Notes: a model not told the origin generated them from the letters alone. A stretch of DNA of 24,000 nucleotides from Immundisolibacter sp. (GCF_014359565.1 NZ_JACIZD010000003.1:252357-276356), one strand, 5' to 3'. Counted from the stretch's first letter, positions 10,263 to 22,693 are shown. Made by a program: numbers and translations.

Positions 10263-10646
10263 TCACTCCCCTTCGACCCTTGCGAATCCGCGCAGCCATG
10301 GCTCGAGATGGGCGATATCAAACGTGCCCGACTCGAACATCTGCATCATCTGCGCATGGATCTGCATCGGCGCACGCTGCAAGCGCCAGCCGTTGATGCG
10401 CAAGAACACGTCGGCAGCCGCAAAGGCGATACGTTTGTTGCCATCCACGAAGGGATGGTTGATTGCGAGGCTTTCGAGCAGCGCCGCCGCCTCGGCCACG
10501 ATGTCATCGTAGTAGCCGGTCTGCGGGCGAAACAGTGCGGCCTCCAGCGCCCCGGGATCGCGCACGCCCGGCGCGCCGCCGTAACGCTGCATCAGCACCG
10601 TGTGCATGCCGAGCATGTCGGCCACGGTCAGGTAATCGCGCGGCAC
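10263..10646 (-). CDS. doc: Type II toxin, death-on-curing (Doc/Fic) family
   Basis: GTG start. It carries the Fic/Doc motif HPFVDGNKRIAFAAA and a typical N-terminus, LTVADMLGMHTVLMQRYGG..GVRD.GALEAAL.RP. Confidence 0.85.
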   Translation of the reverse strand: MPRDYLTVADMLGMHTVLMQRYGGAPGVRDPGALEAALFRPQTGYYDDIVAEAAALLESLAINHPFVDGNKRIAFAAADVFLRINGWRLQRAPMQIHAQMMQMFESGTFDIAHLEPWLRGFARVEGE

Positions 10647-10649
10647 GGC

Positions 10650-10895
10650 TTACTTCGCCAACTCCCGGTAGAGGCTGTCGAACTCATCCAGACTGGACGC
10701 GAATGATTCCATCACGTGACGGCGGGGACGCTTCTTCTGCTGCCGGTCGATGTAGTCGCGCAGGGCTTCGTCGAGCACCGCCTGGAACTGGCGGCCTTGG
10801 CTCTCTGCAATCTGTCGCAGCGCCGCCAGCACATCCGGTGCGGCTTGGGAGGAAAACTTTTCGCGGGCCGCAGTCGTCATGGCCATCTCCATCAT
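10650..10895 (-). CDS. Ribbon-helix-helix (CopG-like) antitoxin paired with Doc
   Basis: The stop lies 3 nt before the doc start. The RHH layout is KFSSQAAPDVLAALRQIAESQGRQFQAVLDEALRDYI. The likely true start is the ATG at 10880, which has GGAG 6 nt upstream. Confidence 0.75.
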   Translation of the reverse strand: MMEMAMTTAAREKFSSQAAPDVLAALRQIAESQGRQFQAVLDEALRDYIDRQQKKRPRRHVMESFASSLDEFDSLYRELAK

Positions 10896-11204: not shown

Positions 11205-11280
<76 letters not shown>

Positions 11281-12025: not shown

Positions 12026-12820
12026 GTGATCCTGCTCGCCTATCTTGCGGTCGGCGCGCTGGCCGGGCTGATCGCCGGCATGCTCGGTCTGGGTGGCGGC
12101 GTGGTGATCGTGCCGGCGCTGGCGCTGGTGTTTCCGCTGCTGGGTATCCCGTCCGAGGTGCTGATGCACTTGGCGATCGGCACCTCGCTGGCGGTTATCG
12201 TGCCGACCTCAATGTCGTCCACCTATGCGCACTACCGGCGCGGCGCCGTGGATCTGCCGCTGGTGCGGCGGCTGCTGCCGGGCTTGGTGGTGGGCGCGGT
12301 GCTGGGAGGCTGGCTGGCGGACAAATTACCCAGCGCGCTGCTCAGTCGCGTGTTCGGGGTATTCGTGATTGGCGTGGCCACGCAGATTTTCTTCAACGCC
12401 ACCGCGCCCGGTCGCCGGCCGCTGCCGGGCGCTGCCGGTCTGCTGACCACAGGCACGGTGATCGGCACCATGTCGACGTTGCTCGGCATCGGCGGAGGCA
12501 GCCTGACGGTGCCGTTTCTGAACTACTGCCGGGTGGACATGCGCCGGGCGGTCGCCACCTCGTCGGCCTGCGGTCTGGTGCTGGGGGTGATCGGGGCGGC
12601 GGTGTTCCTGTGGGCGGGGCGCGATCATCCCGGGCTGCCGGCCGGCGCCATCGGTTATCTGTATCTGCCGGCGTTCATCGGTATCGCGGGGGCATCGGTG
12701 CTGACCGCGCCGCTGGGTGCGCGCCTGGCGCACAGCCTGCCGGTGGTGACACTCAAGCGCGTCTTTGCGGTGTTTCTGGCGATGGCCGGCCTGCGCATGC
12801 TCGGCGTGCTGCACTTTTGA
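12026..12820 (+). CDS. TauE/SafE family sulfite/anion exporter (DUF81, YfcA-like)
   Basis: 264 aa and polytopic, with the duplicated GxGGG motifs (GMLGLGGGVVIVP and LLGIGGGSLTVP) characteristic of the family. Confidence 0.85.
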   Translation: MILLAYLAVGALAGLIAGMLGLGGGVVIVPALALVFPLLGIPSEVLMHLAIGTSLAVIVPTSMSSTYAHYRRGAVDLPLVRRLLPGLVVGAVLGGWLADKLPSALLSRVFGVFVIGVATQIFFNATAPGRRPLPGAAGLLTTGTVIGTMSTLLGIGGGSLTVPFLNYCRVDMRRAVATSSACGLVLGVIGAAVFLWAGRDHPGLPAGAIGYLYLPAFIGIAGASVLTAPLGARLAHSLPVVTLKRVFAVFLAMAGLRMLGVLHF

Positions 12821-16308: not shown

Positions 16309-16479
16309 TTCGACAAGTCGATGATCCGCCGGCACGGCGGCAGGATTCTGACTGCCCAAGCTTCTGCCGGTGGCGGACCGGGGCTTGGCGATCGCCAGGG
16401 AAACGGCGTTGCCAAGGTCGCCGGCCGCGGCCTACCATGCGGCCGTCAAGCGCGCTGCATCAACGAGGAGAAACACGCC

Positions 16480-17619
16480 ATGGGCACCCTGGAGCGCTTC
16501 AATTTCGATGCCAGTCATCGCAAATACTCGCAAGATGACGTGCGTCGTGCGGCGCGCAACATGCTGATCGACGGCTGCCAGATGAAGGCCGGCGACGAGG
16601 TGCTGATCCTGAACGAGAACGGCATCACCGAACCGGCCGCCTCGGACATCATCGAGGACGAGGCGCGCAAGCTCGGCGGGCGCGTGCACGTGATGTGGAC
16701 CGACACCGTCAGGGGCCCCGAGGACATGCCGCCGTCGGTGGTCAAGGCCTTCGAGTCGCCGGACGTGACCATCTTCAACCACATGATCGCCGGCGTGCTG
16801 CGCATGGTGCCGTTCAACGGCCGCGGCATGAAGATGCTGAATTTTCTGCAGACCTGGGACCAGCTGGGTTCGCCGTTCGGGCAGGTGCCATACGGGGTGT
16901 GGCTGGAGGTGCTCAAGAACCTCGGCCCGCGCCTGGGGTCGGCCAAGCGCTGGCGCATCACCTGCCCGCTGGGCAGTGAGCTGTCCGGGCCGATCCCGCA
17001 GCCGGGCCAGTCGCCCAAGCCGGCCAAGTCCGACGCCAAGGCCACCGGCGACGGCTTCACGCTGCGCACCTTTCCGCTGGGCGTGTGCCAGGTGTTCGAT
17101 GCCATGCAGGCCAGCGGTCGCCTTGCCGTGCGCTGGCTGACGCCGTCCGGCATCCACGTGTTCGAGCCCAACGGCATTGCCCTGCCCAGCCCGGTGCTGA
17201 TCGATATCGAAAACGGCCGCATCACCGGCTTCGATGGCGACCCGCAGGCCGTCGCCCAGCTGCGCGCCTACATGGAAAAGTGCGGCGGTGAGACGGGCAA
17301 GGAGCCCTACATCGTCAATTCCTGGCACGCCGGCATCAACCCGCGCTGCGCCGTCACGGCCGGGCCCGAGCAGGGTCTGGACCAGTGGATGTACATGGTT
17401 CACGCCAACCCGCGCATCGTGCATTTCCACACCATCGGCCCGCTGCAGCCGGGCGAGATGTCGATTCCGGTGGTCGATCCGACCATCGAGTTCGACGGCG
17501 AGAAGGTGTGGGACGCCGGCCGGCTGGTGTTTCTGGATCGCCCCGACCTGCGCGACAAGGTACGCGCCTTCGGCGATCCGGATTTCGCCTTCCATCACGA
17601 ACTCGAAATCGGCATCTAG
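16480..17619 (+). CDS. COG2309 / peptidase-M29-fold protein, NicX-like (2,5-dihydroxypyridine dioxygenase family or aminopeptidase-like). Function unresolved.
   Basis: GAGGAG at 16463-16468 precedes ATG 16480, giving 379 aa. The N-terminal layout (G..V.IL....... A....A..LGG.V) and the C-terminal region (IENGRITGFDG....L..YM......Y..SWHAGINPR...HFHT.......IP...PTIEFDGEKVWDAGRLV) resemble my memory of P. putida NicX. The CDS itself is confident. The family call is moderate. Confidence 0.55.
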   Translation: MGTLERFNFDASHRKYSQDDVRRAARNMLIDGCQMKAGDEVLILNENGITEPAASDIIEDEARKLGGRVHVMWTDTVRGPEDMPPSVVKAFESPDVTIFNHMIAGVLRMVPFNGRGMKMLNFLQTWDQLGSPFGQVPYGVWLEVLKNLGPRLGSAKRWRITCPLGSELSGPIPQPGQSPKPAKSDAKATGDGFTLRTFPLGVCQVFDAMQASGRLAVRWLTPSGIHVFEPNGIALPSPVLIDIENGRITGFDGDPQAVAQLRAYMEKCGGETGKEPYIVNSWHAGINPRCAVTAGPEQGLDQWMYMVHANPRIVHFHTIGPLQPGEMSIPVVDPTIEFDGEKVWDAGRLVFLDRPDLRDKVRAFGDPDFAFHHELEIGI

Positions 17620-17664
17620 GCGCCCGCCGCCCAGCCCGCTCATGGCAACAAAAGAAGCACCCGT

Positions 17665-18717
17665 ATGACCCGCACCATCTGGTACACCCGCTGCCCGGTG
17701 CCGACCGCGTCCGGCATCGCCTATCAGCGCAAGCTGTTCGACAGCCAGTTCGCGGGCACCGACTGCGAGGTCCGCAACATCAAGGAACTGGGCCGTGCCA
17801 ATGCGGACACGCATTTCGCCCACACGCTGGAGGATTCGTTCCGCGAGGGCGGTGGCTCGCCGCCGGTGTGGGCCCGCTCGCGCGGGGCGGATACATCGCT
17901 GCTGGGCATCAGTTTCGTCGAGGAGACCTTGGGCCTGTTCGTGCGCGCGGATGACCCCATCCACTCGGTGCGGGATCTGGCCGGCAAGCGTCTGGCGCTG
18001 CCGGTGTGGCCCGATCTGATCATGAATTTCTTCCGCTTCGCGGCCCAGAAGGCCTTCGTGTCGGCGCTCGAACTGCACGGCATGCACGAGCGCGATGCAC
18101 AGTTCGTGGACGTGGTCGAGACCGCCGATCACCATGAGCTGATCAATCCCGGCTTTGCCGATACCCAGGCCCGCCAGCAGCGGTCGTACTATCACTGTCA
18201 GATGCGCGCCCTGCTGGACGGCAAGGTCGACGCCTTCTTCGCCAAGGGCGGCGAGATTGCCGCCATGCAGCGCGAGTCCGGCGGCGGCATCCGCATGCTC
18301 TATAACCTGATCGACGCCGAGCCGCTGTGGGCCAAGGTCAACAACGCCACCCCGCGGCTGCTCACGGTCAGCAATTCGCTGGTCCGCGAGCGCCCGGATG
18401 CCGTGGTGCGCTACGCGCGCACCCTGCTGCAGGCCGCCACCTGGGCGGCGCAGCCGGAAAACAAGGCCGAAGCCACCGCCGCCATGGCGCGCGAGACCGG
18501 TGTCACGCCGGCGGACATCGAAACCTACTACACGCCGGACCTGCACCAGAAGCTGAAGCCCGAACTGAGCGCGCGCCTGATAGAGACGCTGGAGATCATG
18601 AAAAGCTTCCTGCACGCGCACGGCTTCATCGAAAAGAATTTCCCGACCCGGGACTGGCTGGCCACCGACCTGCTGCGCGAGGCGTATGCGGCCGAAGGCA
18701 TCGCCTGGCCGGACTGA
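17665..18717 (+). CDS. Cytoplasmic periplasmic-binding-protein-fold (NMT1/SsuA-like) protein resembling DszB, the 2'-hydroxybiphenyl-2-sulfinate desulfinase
   Basis: 350 aa with no signal peptide. TIWYTRCPVPTASGIA compares with DszB TLTYSNCPVPNALLTA. THFAHTLEDSFREGGGSPPVW compares with DszB VHFTYDQPAYTRFGGEIPPLL, with identical H-x9-R-x-GG-xx-PP spacing. LLGISFVEETLGLFVRADDPIHSVRDLAGKRLAL compares with LLGITPLLGRQGFFVRDDSPITAAADLAGRRIGV. The DszB sequence is recalled from memory. Confidence 0.6.
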   Translation: MTRTIWYTRCPVPTASGIAYQRKLFDSQFAGTDCEVRNIKELGRANADTHFAHTLEDSFREGGGSPPVWARSRGADTSLLGISFVEETLGLFVRADDPIHSVRDLAGKRLALPVWPDLIMNFFRFAAQKAFVSALELHGMHERDAQFVDVVETADHHELINPGFADTQARQQRSYYHCQMRALLDGKVDAFFAKGGEIAAMQRESGGGIRMLYNLIDAEPLWAKVNNATPRLLTVSNSLVRERPDAVVRYARTLLQAATWAAQPENKAEATAAMARETGVTPADIETYYTPDLHQKLKPELSARLIETLEIMKSFLHAHGFIEKNFPTRDWLATDLLREAYAAEGIAWPD

Positions 18718-18757
18718 GCTTTCCAGAAATCAACCGCCCAACCAGGAACTTTCGATC

Positions 18758-19246
18758 ATGAATAGCCCGCTCGACCCCAAAGCCCTGCGTCAGGTGTTCG
18801 GCCAGTTCTGCACCGGGGTCACGGTGGTATGCGCCACCGACACGCAAGGCCGCCGCTACGGCATCACCGTCAACTCCTTCAGCTCGCTGTCGCTGGACCC
18901 GCCGCTGGCGCTGTTCGCCCTGACCCGGGAGTCCGAGACCCTGAAGATCATCGAGGCCGCCGGTGCCTTCAGCATCAACATCCTGGCCGAAAACCAGCAG
19001 GACATCTCGAACCGCCTGGCCAAGAGGGGCGGACCGGAGAAGATGGACGGCGTCGTCACCCATCCGGGCGTCACCGGCGCACCGATCGTCGAAGGCTCGA
19101 TCGGCTACCTGGACTGCACGCTGCGCAACAACTACGACGGCGGCGACCACGTGATCCTGGTCGGTGAGATCAAACTGGCCGCGGTCGGCGAGCCGCTGCC
19201 GCCGCTGCTGTATTTTCGTAGTGCCTACAGGACCGTGACGGATTGA
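18758..19246 (+). CDS. NAD(P)H-flavin reductase (HpaC/DszD-type flavin reductase domain)
   Basis: LRQVFGQFCTGVTVVCA......GITVNSFSSLSLDPPLALFAL.......I.....F.INILA..Q...S..........GAP...GS...L.C........GDH.I.VGE is the flavin_reduct family pattern. Confidence 0.85.
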   Translation: MNSPLDPKALRQVFGQFCTGVTVVCATDTQGRRYGITVNSFSSLSLDPPLALFALTRESETLKIIEAAGAFSINILAENQQDISNRLAKRGGPEKMDGVVTHPGVTGAPIVEGSIGYLDCTLRNNYDGGDHVILVGEIKLAAVGEPLPPLLYFRSAYRTVTD

Positions 19247-19280
19247 TCGTCGCCGCGCAGCAACACCACAGGAGGTCGAG

Positions 19281-19706
19281 ATGGACAAGGCTACGGTGAC
19301 CGAGACCATCGACGTGAACGCATCCCTGGACAAGGCGTGGGCGCTGGTCGGCGATTTCGGCGGCCTGGTCGGCTGGTTTCCGGCGGTCACCGAAAGCATC
19401 GTCGAGGGCAGCGGTGTGGGCGCGCTGCGCCACCTGACCATGCCCGACGGGAATCAGCTGACCGAGCGCCAGCAGGCGCGCGACGATGCCGCCCGTTGCT
19501 ACGAGTACGTGGTCATCGCCGGTGCGCTGCCGTGCACCGACTATCGGTCGCGGCTGGCCGTGAGCCCGGCCGGCAGTGGGGCGCGGATCACCTGGACCGC
19601 CGAGTTCGTGCCGCTGCCGGATGCGCCCGTGGACGCGGTGGCCTTCATCAGCAGCATCTATCAGAGCGGGCTGGCCGGCGCCAAGGCAGTGCTGGACGGC
19701 CAGTAG
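19281..19706 (+). CDS. SRPBCC (Bet v1 / polyketide-cyclase-like) ligand-binding protein
   Basis: AGGAGG precedes the ATG. The 141-aa protein has I.VNASLDKAWALVGDFGGLVGWFPAV, which is typical of the family. Confidence 0.75.
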   Translation: MDKATVTETIDVNASLDKAWALVGDFGGLVGWFPAVTESIVEGSGVGALRHLTMPDGNQLTERQQARDDAARCYEYVVIAGALPCTDYRSRLAVSPAGSGARITWTAEFVPLPDAPVDAVAFISSIYQSGLAGAKAVLDGQ

Positions 19707-19726
19707 GCATCGTCGCAACGCGCCGG

Positions 19727-19766
19727 GCTTCACCGCCTGGCGGCTGATGCCCCCAGGCGGTGAAGC
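19727..19766. other. 14-bp perfect inverted repeat (hairpin) between and within the convergent gene ends
   Basis: GCTTCACCGCCTGG (19727-19740) and CCAGGCGGTGAAGC (19753-19766) with a 12-nt loop. It lies 21 nt after the SRPBCC stop and inside the 3' end of the dioxygenase ORF. There is no U tract. Confidence 0.5.
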
Positions 19767-20393
19767 GCGTCAGATGCCGCTGACGCCAGTTGGGGCCAAC
19801 GTCGTAGCCGCCGGTACCGATCTCCCACTCGAAACCCGACGGCGTGCGGCCGTAGAAGGAGAACACGTCGTCGGTGTGGCGGCCGGGCAGGTGGGTGATT
19901 TCCACCCCGGCGGCGCGCGCGCGATCGCAGGCCAAACCCACCGCGTCGATATCGGGCACGTGCATCTCGAAATGCGCCGTGCGCTTGACCGGTGGAATGC
20001 CGACGCCCAGTGCAATCGAGTGATGGCGGCGGTTGCAGTGCAGGAACACCGCCTCGATGGTCAGGCCGGCCCACTCCTCGGCGCCGCGGTCCGAGACGGC
20101 CATGCCGATCACGTCGGTGTAGAAACGCAGCGTCGGCTCCAGATCCTGCGTCACCAGCACGATGTGGCCCATGCCCATGTCGCCGGTCACAAAGCCGCTT
20201 GGTGCGACCGCCGAGGCAAACGCCGTCGCCGCCACGCGCTGGCCCAGACACAGTTCCAGCGGATTGCCGGACGGGTCGCGGAAGCTGACCAGATCGGTCA
20301 CGTGGCGGGCGCGGCAGGCGCTTTCGTCACCTTTGTGCATAGCCACGCCGGCTGCCTTCAGACGGCCCAGCGCGGCATCGAATTCGCCGCGAT

Positions 20394-20599
20394 TCAGCGC
20401 CGCCAGGCCCACCGCCGCCACGTCGTCCTGGCTGCCGGGACGCAGGAACAGTCGCTGTTCGCACTCGTCCATGCGGTAGCCACGCGAGCCATCGTCTCAG
20501 CGCCGCCAGGCCCACCGCCGCCACGTCGTCCTGGCTGCCGGGACGCAGGAACAGTCGCTGTTCGCACTCGTCCATGCGGTAGCCACGCGAGCCATCGTC
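20394..20599. repeat. Perfect direct tandem duplication, 2 x 103 bp
   Basis: Compared base by base, 20394-20496 and 20497-20599 are identical (TCAGCGCCGCCAGGCCCACC...GAGCCATCGTC). The flanking bases differ, so the unit is exactly 103 bp. Confidence 0.95.
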
Positions 20600-20967
20600 G
20601 TTGCCGCCATTGCCAATCATGCCGATGACATTGGTCAGCAAAGCCTCCCAGCCCTGCAGGTCCGAGACCTCGAAACCCAGATAGGCGAGTTCCAGTCCGG
20701 CGGTCATCACGCGCTCCCCCTGTAATTGGCGGCCAGCGTGGGGTTCATCGCCGGCCGGGCTGCTGCCAGCGATGCGCTGGGCAGCTTCTTGATGGCTGGG
20801 TCATCGTATCCGAAACGCAAAACGGGAACGGCCGGTCGCCGGGGAAGCGCGCAAAACTGTTGCGCGACGCGCGGGCTCTCGATGCTGGCAAGGTGGCGAG
20901 GCGGGCGGTTCGACCTGAGCGGGGAGCGCTCGTTCGGGCAGCGGCAGCCGGAAAGTCCAGGCTGGAG

Positions 20968-22395
20968 CTAGTCGGCGCAGTGTCGGGCCGGGTGCGTGAC
21001 TGGCAAGACGGCTTGCCCCTTTTTTTCCGACTTGGGGCGGCGCGCCGCCTGCTGCTCGGGAAGTTGCGGCGAACGCGCGCCGGCCTTCATCCCCTGCCTG
21101 AAAAACTGGTAGTTGTCTCGCCCTTCGTTTTTGGCGTGGTACATCGCGGCGTCCGCGCAGCGGATCAAGGCCGCAGCGGTCGCCACGTGTCCCCCCTCGG
21201 GAAACAGGCTGATACCGATACTGACGCTGATCCGAATGTCGGAGCCGGCGATGGTATGCGGTGCTGCCAGGGCGTTCAGCATCTTCTGGGCGCTCAGGCC
21301 GGCATCCCCGGCCTGCTGGATTTCCGATAGCAGGACTACAAATTCGTCTCCGCCCTGCCGGCTTACGGTGTCCGATCCGCGCACGCAGGCCAGCAGGCGT
21401 TGTGCCACCGACTGGAGCAGTTTGTCGCCCACCAGATGGCCCAAAGAGTCATTGATCTGTTTGAATCCATCCAGGTCCAGGAACAGCACGGCGCCCTGGT
21501 TGCCATGACGGCGTGCCAGGGATATTGCATTTTCAATCCGGTCATTCAGCAATATGCGGTTCGGCAAATTGGTCAGGGCGTCGTGATGGGCCAGATAAGC
21601 CAGGTGTTGTGTCTTGGCGCGGGCGGCAGTCACGTCGCGAAACACGATTACCGCTCCGCTTGTCTTGCCAGCAGCATCACGGATTGGGGCGGCCGAATCC
21701 TCAATGGCATATTCCTTTCCATCGCGCCGGACCAGCACGCAGTTGGCGGTCAAGCCCACGGGCTTGTCTTCCTGGATTGCCTGCTGCAATGGATTGGGCG
21801 CCACTTCGCGCGTAATGCCATCAACGATTCTGAATACCTCGCCAACCGAGTGACCGGTCGCCTCCGCATCAGTCCAGCCGGTCATGTCTTCGGCCACCGG
21901 ATTCAGGTACGTCACATTGCCCGCAAGATCGGTGCTCAGCACGGCATCACCGATCGAGTTCAGCGTGGCATGGGCGCGATCGGTCACGACCGACGCGGCC
22001 TGCTCGTTGGTGTGACGCTCGATCACGCTGCGCAGAATGCGCGGCAACCAGTACGCGTCAAGGTGATTCTTCAGCAGATGGTCCTGCGCGCCAAGCTGAA
22101 TGGCTTGCCGGGCGAGCGCAGAATTTTCGGCGCTGGTCAGAATCAGTATTGGAACGCGCCGCGCGGCCCTGAACACTATCTCGAACGTCTTTATGCCTTG
22201 ACTGTCGGGCAGGAACAGGTCAAGCAACACCGCGACGATTCCGGGTCTGAACAAACGGTCAACGCCATCTGAAATCCGGTTGACCTGTTGCAGCGTCCAT
22301 TTTTTATCAACCGACGTGGCCAATGCCTTGCGAATGAGCATTGCATCAGCGGCGCAGTCCGAGACAAGCAGTACGGTGCAAAGGTCGTTGTCCAT
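20968..22395 (-). CDS. Response-regulator receiver - PAS - GGDEF diguanylate cyclase
   Basis: REC domain: VLLVSD...AVLLDLFLPD...ILTS...LLK. PAS domain: LNSIGDAVLSTDLAGNVTYLNPVAEDMTGW. GGDEF domain with I-site: RGSDTVSRQGGDEFVVLL. The start is ATG 22395 or GTG 22431. Confidence 0.85.
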   Translation of the reverse strand: MDNDLCTVLLVSDCAADAMLIRKALATSVDKKWTLQQVNRISDGVDRLFRPGIVAVLLDLFLPDSQGIKTFEIVFRAARRVPILILTSAENSALARQAIQLGAQDHLLKNHLDAYWLPRILRSVIERHTNEQAASVVTDRAHATLNSIGDAVLSTDLAGNVTYLNPVAEDMTGWTDAEATGHSVGEVFRIVDGITREVAPNPLQQAIQEDKPVGLTANCVLVRRDGKEYAIEDSAAPIRDAAGKTSGAVIVFRDVTAARAKTQHLAYLAHHDALTNLPNRILLNDRIENAISLARRHGNQGAVLFLDLDGFKQINDSLGHLVGDKLLQSVAQRLLACVRGSDTVSRQGGDEFVVLLSEIQQAGDAGLSAQKMLNALAAPHTIAGSDIRISVSIGISLFPEGGHVATAAALIRCADAAMYHAKNEGRDNYQFFRQGMKAGARSPQLPEQQAARRPKSEKKGQAVLPVTHPARHCAD

Positions 22396-22693
22396 GAGGT
22401 CGGATTTCGAGCGGGTTTCTGTCTGCCACACGAGCGCCGGCTTTCAGTTTGTCGCCGTCATTCTGGCGCGGGCATCGGGCCCGTTCCGTGCGCTAGCCCA
22501 CGTGTTGCCGACGACCTCGACGCGGTACGGCCGGCCGGGCACCCCCCGGCCGCGGTTACGATCGGGCCGGCAGCCTGGCCTGCCACGGTTGCGCCGCACG
22601 GCCGGCGCCCGGAACCTGAAGGTCAGGTACTGGTTGAGGCGCTCGGTCGTTATGGACCCAGGGCGGCACCGAACCGCTCAGCCTTGGCCAGGC

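Follow-up and report, generated by a model that had tools for sequence, protein, structure and literature searches.

A conserved operon in Immundisolibacter pairs a DszB-like protein with a NicX-fold protein of an uncharacterised family

We analysed a stretch of 24,000 nucleotides from Immundisolibacter sp. (GCF_014359565.1, NZ_JACIZD010000003.1:252357-276356), which we refer to as the window, and found that four plus-strand genes within it, here called A, B, C and D, belong to a real, conserved and uncharacterised operon in which D is a lineage-specific accessory. As judged from its sequence, the product of gene B is a cytoplasmic enzyme that resembles the desulfinase DszB rather than a transport binding protein. 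Gene A encodes a protein with the fold of NicX, probably a metalloenzyme of an uncharacterised family, and gene C encodes a flavin reductase. The function that we favour, tentatively, is that A-B-C is a module for the desulfination of organosulfur compounds (aryl or heteroaryl sulfinates) in which the NicX-fold protein is a new partner. Our literature searches found no published work on a module that combines a DszB-like and a NicX-fold protein.

Genes A, B and C form a conserved unit

The gaps between A and B, B and C, and C and D are 45, 40 and 34 nt, respectively, and the coordinates of the open reading frames (ORFs) confirm the close packing on the plus strand that was described in an initial annotation made by a model from the DNA sequence. 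That annotation also gave each gene a Shine-Dalgarno sequence of its own. Purine-rich ribosome-binding sequences do precede all four genes, strong ones at A (GAGGAG) and D (AGGAGG) and weaker ones at B (AAGAAG) and C (AGGAA). A consensus scan placed a promoter-like site upstream of gene A (Table 1), and this predicted promoter looks sigma-70-like. Its two hexamers, TTGCCA and TACCAT, are kept in six Immundisolibacter loci (the window, L009, L010, L011, L013 and L095), and the genes upstream of the site vary among the last five. The persistence of the hexamers despite the differing upstream genes argues for a dedicated promoter. No riboswitch or other RNA element was found upstream of gene A, the sole match being a tRNA-Ala. 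Beyond gene D, the operon meets a convergent gene for an extradiol dioxygenase, and a G+C-rich hairpin lies between the two. The 65 nt around this hairpin have a folding energy of −42.3 kcal/mol, and the hairpin is probably a bidirectional terminator.

Genes A and B are adjacent and in the same order in about 21 distinct loci. These come from Immundisolibacter, other Immundisolibacteraceae, gammaproteobacterial metagenome-assembled genomes, Binataceae and one metagenome contig (L099), with gene A identity reaching down to 46-48%. Gene C follows B in most of the loci, but not at the Binataceae locus, on L099 or on truncated contigs. Among relatives whose gene A is 50-100% identical to that of the window, the order A-B-C is kept, and the flanks of the module vary by locus and consist mostly of housekeeping genes. 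Both this order and the conserved promoter-like site bear out the single operon that was initially proposed. At L007, a 325-aa gene that follows A was considered as a divergent B, and no similarity was found.

Gene D was seen solely in Immundisolibacter-level loci, where gene A has ≥80% identity. In a sister lineage (gene A 50-54% identical), D is replaced as the fourth gene by one for an unrelated 127-aa protein that has no Pfam match. This gene is found at L005 (10782-11165) and also at L016-L019, L021, L025 and L096-L098, with 68-87% identity between loci. The possibility that it encodes a divergent SRPBCC protein was tested and rejected. As A-B-C is kept and neither D nor the dioxygenase is, the conserved unit is A-B-C. 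The initial annotation had treated the four genes and the dioxygenase as one five-gene arrangement whose conservation should be surveyed; the survey found A-B-C to be conserved, and the five-gene set not.

Gene B encodes a predicted DszB-like enzyme

Comparison of the gene B product with the PDB by phmmer returned DszB (2de2; E = 5.5e-16), with the match falling in two stretches, residues 4-112 and 225-339. In the alignment, the segment YTRCPVPTA of B stands opposite YSNCPVPNA of DszB, the segment that contains Cys27, and Cys10 of B is thereby equivalent to Cys27. By the same alignment, His50 of B corresponds to His60 of DszB, Arg60 to Arg70 and G62-G63 to G72-G73. The literature on DszB, PMC6100217 included, describes Cys27 as catalytic and His60 and Arg70, together with Gly73, as sulfinate binding. 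Across 40 homologues with 45-90% identity to B, the residues Cys10, His50, Arg60 and G62-G63 are invariant.

Inspection of the sequence, rather than a predictor, places the start of the conserved core TIWYTRCPVP at residue 4, and B therefore has no signal peptide; a lipobox is likewise missing. Generic binding-protein models match it weakly, Pfam NMT1 with 29.7 bits and NCBIfam SsuA_fam with 68.5 bits (cut-off, 163.5). In databases, B-family proteins carry the names of sulfonate or ABC-transporter substrate-binding proteins, and such naming is probably a systematic misannotation. The DszB-like character that the initial annotation gave to B is thus strengthened by a sequence match and by the catalytic residues. 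B is like DszB in these two respects, in being cytoplasmic and in having a flavin reductase gene nearby, for which a DszD-like role is conceivable. The B locus is unlike that of DszB in that it has no dszA or dszC, in its NicX-fold partner and in its gammaproteobacterial host.

Gene A encodes a NicX-fold protein outside the known families

Gene A matches no Pfam or NCBIfam model, even at E ≤ 10, and the Peptidase_M29 profile likewise gives no match at this threshold. For the NicX family (Pfam PF26233), a precomputed "faint" hit to gene A exists, with nothing more on record. No sequence search of the PDB, whether by phmmer, with a profile of 52 sequences or from three distant members of the family, found a bridge to NicX or M29. 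An AlphaFold2 model built from the 52-sequence alignment reached a predicted local distance difference test (pLDDT) score of 90.8, and a single-sequence model was unusable (pLDDT, 40.6).

With the alignment-based model as the query, the top Foldseek match was NicX (7cn3 and 7cup), with E = 1.5e-15 for 7cn3, template modelling (TM) scores of 0.59-0.64 and 16-17% identity. The M29 aminopeptidases PepS (4icq), AmpS (1zjc) and AmpT (2ayi) came next (E of 1e-10 to 1e-7; TM, 0.45-0.50; 9-12% identity). The NicX/M29 type that had been assigned to A initially thus stands at the level of the fold. A does not belong among the true M29 aminopeptidases. It shares the overall fold of these enzymes but has a lower TM score to them than to NicX, lacks a profile match, and sits in a genomic context that is catabolic rather than proteolytic. 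The initial annotation had suggested profile and structure searches for A and B, and these place neither B in a transport substrate-binding-protein family nor A among the true aminopeptidases.

Invariant across the gene A family are C162 (in TCPLGT), H283 (in NSWHAG), H315 and H317 (in HFHT) and D333, and E326 is nearly invariant. In NicX, Fe(II) is bound by His265, Ser302, His318 and Asp320 (PMC7910607). When the two are compared by motif spacing, without a residue-level superposition, the HxD iron motif of NicX seems to be HxH in A. The two proteins share their fold, and each has a cluster of conserved histidines in its C-terminal half. They differ in that A has no family match by sequence, has invariants of its own (H283, H315-x-H317 and C162) and has no nic genes nearby; genes of the NicC, NicD and NicF types are all missing from the window. 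Taken together, the model and the conserved residues suggest that A is probably a metalloenzyme. In a set of 1.84 billion representatives, its family (E ≤ 1e-3) makes up 1,151 clusters when grouped at 50% identity, and 533 matching stretches were found across 185,579 species genomes.

Other members of the gene A family occur without B or in other company. Immundisolibacter has a second paralogue, 47% identical and without B (L023, 10001-11116), which is divergent to a Rieske oxygenase gene and convergent with a response-regulator gene of PAS-GAF-GGDEF-EAL architecture. Distant homologues (<40% identity) in marine Alphaproteobacteria lie beside MttB, CMD-like, flavin adenine dinucleotide (FAD)-oxidase-like and helix-turn-helix-regulator-like genes. 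At L008, L045, L047, L054, L065 and L085, distant members adjoin genes like those for MttB-type methyltransferases and CMD/AhpD proteins, where the neighbours were identified by Pfam hits at L008 and recognised by their N-terminal sequences at the others. This context suggests a different role, in methylated-amine metabolism, for the marine alphaproteobacterial branch.

The results on A and B bear on the possibility that the two share no pathway at all, with B a solute-binding protein, A a peptidase and the genes neighbours by chance. The database name of B ("ABC transporter substrate-binding protein"), its weak NMT1 and SsuA_fam matches and the fold that A has in common with M29 could be read in this way. 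However, B lacks a signal peptide, has no transporter genes near it, carries the invariant DszB catalytic residues and stays far below the SsuA_fam cut-off (68.5 against 163.5 bits); A has no Peptidase_M29 match even at the permissive threshold; and the A-B-C order persists in very different genomic surroundings. We consider a chance association barely credible.

Genes C and D encode a flavin reductase and an SRPBCC protein

Gene C matches Pfam Flavin_Reduct (PF01613) with E = 2.3e-41. Among NCBIfam models, HsaB, HpaC-type reductases and FerA fit it best, and each scores under its equivalog cut-off. The initial annotation had noted a reductase of this kind without a monooxygenase partner in the window, and indeed no oxygenase partner was found among the window ORFs scanned. 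Nor was an oxygenase component present at the A-B-C loci L001, L004 and L005, for which the called genes were read. Gene D matches Pfam Polyketide_cyc2 (E = 4e-25), and the solved structures nearest to it (3f08 and XoxI, 3cnw) are of proteins that are uncharacterised. The Pfam matches agree with the flavin reductase and SRPBCC assignments made initially.

Relatives of gene B occur among sulfur genes

We also examined the neighbourhoods of B relatives. At L089, a relative 58% identical to B has DszA- and DszC-type oxygenase genes beside it: it lies among three luciferase-like genes, two DszC-like genes of the acyl-CoA-dehydrogenase fold and a gene for a sulfite-oxidase-type molybdenum enzyme. 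In Binataceae, a gene for a four-domain rhodanese begins 7 nt after B, and Rieske oxygenase and DszC-like genes are found around it. For more distant, Cys-bearing relatives (33-38% identical), 32 loci of at least 6 kb were available; luciferase-like monooxygenases are present at 19 of these and ABC or TonB transport genes at 29, with sigma-54 activators (11/32) and class II aldolases (9/32) less frequent. Antisense shadow ORFs of B were left out of the neighbourhood clustering. A Cys-less SsuA-like paralogue often stands alongside these Cys-bearing relatives. A similar picture is seen in the metagenome loci L125-L174, where cytoplasmic Cys-bearing DszB-like proteins are common together with sigma-54 activators, luciferase-like monooxygenases, ABC transporters and TonB receptors.

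Cys-bearing B relatives are thus embedded in clusters like the sulfate-starvation loci of the ssu/sfn/msu type, which have the sigma-54 activator SfnR. The operon in the window is unlike such loci: it has no transporter, luciferase-like oxygenase or sigma-54 activator, and its promoter is of the predicted sigma-70-like type. At L089 and L090, B relatives without A are accompanied by an isochorismatase-family gene and a gene for a conserved small cupin (Table 1), which may be a functional stand-in for A. A more specific proposal, that this cupin is a thiol-dioxygenase analogue of A, was dropped, as the evidence for it was of the generic Cupin_2 kind.

Possible functions of the module

Operon anatomy, A-B-C synteny, the active-site residues of B, the sulfur contexts of B relatives and the Fe(II)-dioxygenase fold and His cluster of A all point, tentatively, toward desulfination. 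If so, B would be a DszB-type desulfinase in which Cys10 protonates the sulfinate-bearing ring carbon, with the sulfinate oxygens held by His50 and Arg60, and its products would be sulfite and the desulfurised ring. A, with its NicX fold and a probable dependence on Fe(II), would perform a neighbouring step, either making the sulfinate (for example, by thiol dioxygenation) or oxidising or cleaving the ring product. A would thereby do the work that, in the classical 4S pathway, falls to two flavin monooxygenases, DszA and DszC. C could supply reduced flavin, as DszD does, to an oxygenase encoded elsewhere, or it could keep the metal of A reduced, and D may bind a hydrophobic substrate or product. 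The unit would be self-contained and cytoplasmic, with a predicted promoter and a predicted terminator of its own.

Several observations weigh against desulfination. Oxygenases of the DszA, DszC and SsuD types are absent from the window ORFs scanned and from most A-B-C loci, and the source of the sulfinate is therefore unexplained. DszB is the sole characterised relative of B, the match to it is restricted to two stretches, and the Cys/His/Arg set could bind a carboxylate. Sulfate-starvation proteins are often low in Cys and Met, and the translation of gene A, read by eye, does not look poor in these residues. The closest fold to A is that of a pyridine-ring dioxygenase, which points to nitrogen-heterocycle metabolism. 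An isochorismatase-family gene, from the family of the amidase NicF, flanks A-B in Binataceae (L006) and on L099 and points the same way. Finally, some B relatives have no sulfur genes near them and adjoin TenA/THI-4 genes, with an alpha/beta hydrolase gene in addition, or, in the case of relatives 52-56% identical, genes for TctC receptors.

Part of this evidence would fit a catabolic module for nitrogen heteroaromatics of the pyridine type, an explanation that we regard as rather unlikely. B would then decarboxylate a hydroxylated heteroaromatic acid by ipso-protonation, A would cleave a dihydroxypyridine-like ring as NicX does, C would serve a hydroxylase, and an amidase encoded elsewhere would end the route. 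Such a module would account for NicX being the top structural match of A and for the NicF-family isochorismatase genes that flank A-B (Binataceae and L099) or B and the cupin (L089 and L090). Rieske oxygenase and Amidohydro_2 genes are frequent neighbours, TenA/THI-4 adjoins B relatives, and B itself belongs to the NMT1/THI5 superfamily. 4,5-Dihydroxyphthalate decarboxylase, moreover, may share the binding-protein-fold group of B. However, A falls outside the NicX family by sequence, A seems, judged by motif spacing, to have HxH where NicX has HxD, and the window has no NicC-, NicD- or NicF-type genes. Nor does a pyridine-type route explain why B relatives occur in sulfur-scavenging contexts or near a rhodanese and a sulfite-oxidase-type enzyme.

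Desulfination remains the function that we prefer, and a bolder form of it, which we consider improbable, would make A and B a new system for the removal of C-S bonds that is independent of flavin monooxygenases. A would oxygenate a (hetero)aromatic thiol or thioether to the sulfinate, and B would cleave the sulfinate to sulfite. The non-heme metal site of A, possibly made up of three histidines, would in this case be kept reduced by C as a dedicated flavin reductase.

The convergent dioxygenase is a bystander

The initial annotation described the gene that faces the operon as a convergent, BphC-like extradiol dioxygenase gene. Its orientation and type hold; what went unnoticed is that the gene is broken by a perfect tandem duplication (Table 1). 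With a unit of 103 bp, which is not divisible by 3, the duplication shifts the frame, and the gene is split into ORFs at 20710-20327 and 20472-19648 on the minus strand. A contig from another sample (L001) that is 99.6% identical to the window lacks the duplication and has an intact dioxygenase of 291 aa. Either a recent mutation or an artefact of the assembly could account for the duplication. The two sequences also differ at 19733-19738, inside the hairpin, where two substitutions and a 1-nt indel alter the C terminus of the dioxygenase; the stop codon is lost through these changes, and the ORF therefore reaches 59 nt into gene D. Once repaired, the dioxygenase matches Pfam BphC_D1 and Glyoxalase, TIGR03213 with 244 bits (cut-off, 366) and BphC (1han) with E = 3.4e-56.

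The dioxygenase gene adjoins the module solely in the window lineage (the window and L001) and at L009. It is absent beside the module at L004, L010-L014, L095 and every more distant locus examined, and it is a bystander that has no part in the module. This bears on a route that had been proposed initially, desulfination and meta-cleavage by way of 2-hydroxybiphenyl. In its five-gene form, B would desulfinate a biphenyl-type sulfinate, the product would be hydroxylated with flavin from C, and the BphC-like neighbour would carry out the meta-cleavage. The genes are indeed adjacent in the window, L001 and L009, the dioxygenase is BphC-like, and Immundisolibacter degrades polycyclic aromatic hydrocarbons. 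Against this, the adjacency is not conserved, and the route is largely refuted for that reason; in addition, the dioxygenase gene is convergent, lies behind a strong hairpin and is frameshifted in the window by the 103-bp duplication, no hydroxylase was found, and the window has neither DszA nor DszC. We consider the route very unlikely, and the dioxygenase is removed as a false lead.

Other features of the window

The remaining genes of the window are housekeeping or miscellaneous ones (those scanned include UDG, cpYpsA, Hsp33, MscL, isocitrate dehydrogenase, a ChrR-type cupin, a Fic/Doc pair, tRNA-Ala and TauE); folA, thyA, apaG, thiG and trmB were assigned from translations alone. The TauE gene (12026-12820) had been linked to the operon in the initial annotation, which itself called the link weak, and we agree: housekeeping genes intervene, and the link is not conserved. 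Near the module, a response-regulator gene of PAS-GGDEF architecture (20968-22431, minus strand) follows the dioxygenase gene. Further away, a Fic/Doc-family toxin gene (10263-10895, minus strand) has a small upstream partner ORF and adjoins tRNA-Ala(CGC) at 11205-11280. Close homologues carry the names Immundisolibacter sp. or I. cernigliae.

Table 1. Coordinates of the operon, its predicted signals and associated features (window positions unless a locus is named)
Feature	Position	Strand	Size	Description
Gene A	16480-17619	+	379 aa	NicX/M29-fold protein, uncharacterised family, probably a metalloenzyme
Gene B	17665-18717	+	350 aa	Predicted cytoplasmic DszB-like protein, NMT1/SsuA-type binding-protein fold
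Gene C	18758-19246	+	162 aa	HpaC/HsaB-type NAD(P)H:flavin reductase
Gene D	19281-19706	+	141 aa	SRPBCC (Polyketide_cyc2) protein, lineage-specific fourth gene
Promoter-like site, TTGCCA-N18-TACCAT	16409-16438	+		Consensus scan; upstream of gene A
G+C-rich hairpin between convergent genes	19724-19769	none		21-nt arms, 90% complementary, 4-nt loop
BphC-like two-domain extradiol dioxygenase gene, disrupted	19648-20710	−		Pfam, NCBIfam and PDB matches
Perfect tandem duplication	20394-20496 and 20497-20599	none	2 × 103 bp	Repeat family D1, 100% identity, 103-nt spacing
Small cupin gene	L089, 14348-14692; L090, 9091-9438		115 aa	Beside B relatives lacking A

Implications

In biodesulfurisation, DszB is the bottleneck, being slow and inhibited by its product, and to our knowledge few of its homologues have been studied. 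Our analysis reveals that cytoplasmic DszB-like proteins with all of the catalytic residues make up a sizeable family in nature, one branch of which is tightly coupled to a small, uncharacterised NicX-fold family. Should the nitrogen-heterocycle route apply, ring cleavage of the NicX type would be extended to new substrates. If instead the A-B pair is a desulfination system, new enzymes that cleave C-S bonds would become available, and an orphan family would have a function. If the flavin-monooxygenase-independent version were true more broadly, the Cys-bearing "substrate-binding proteins" of sulfur-scavenging loci, which number in the hundreds, would make up a large unrecognised family of desulfinases.

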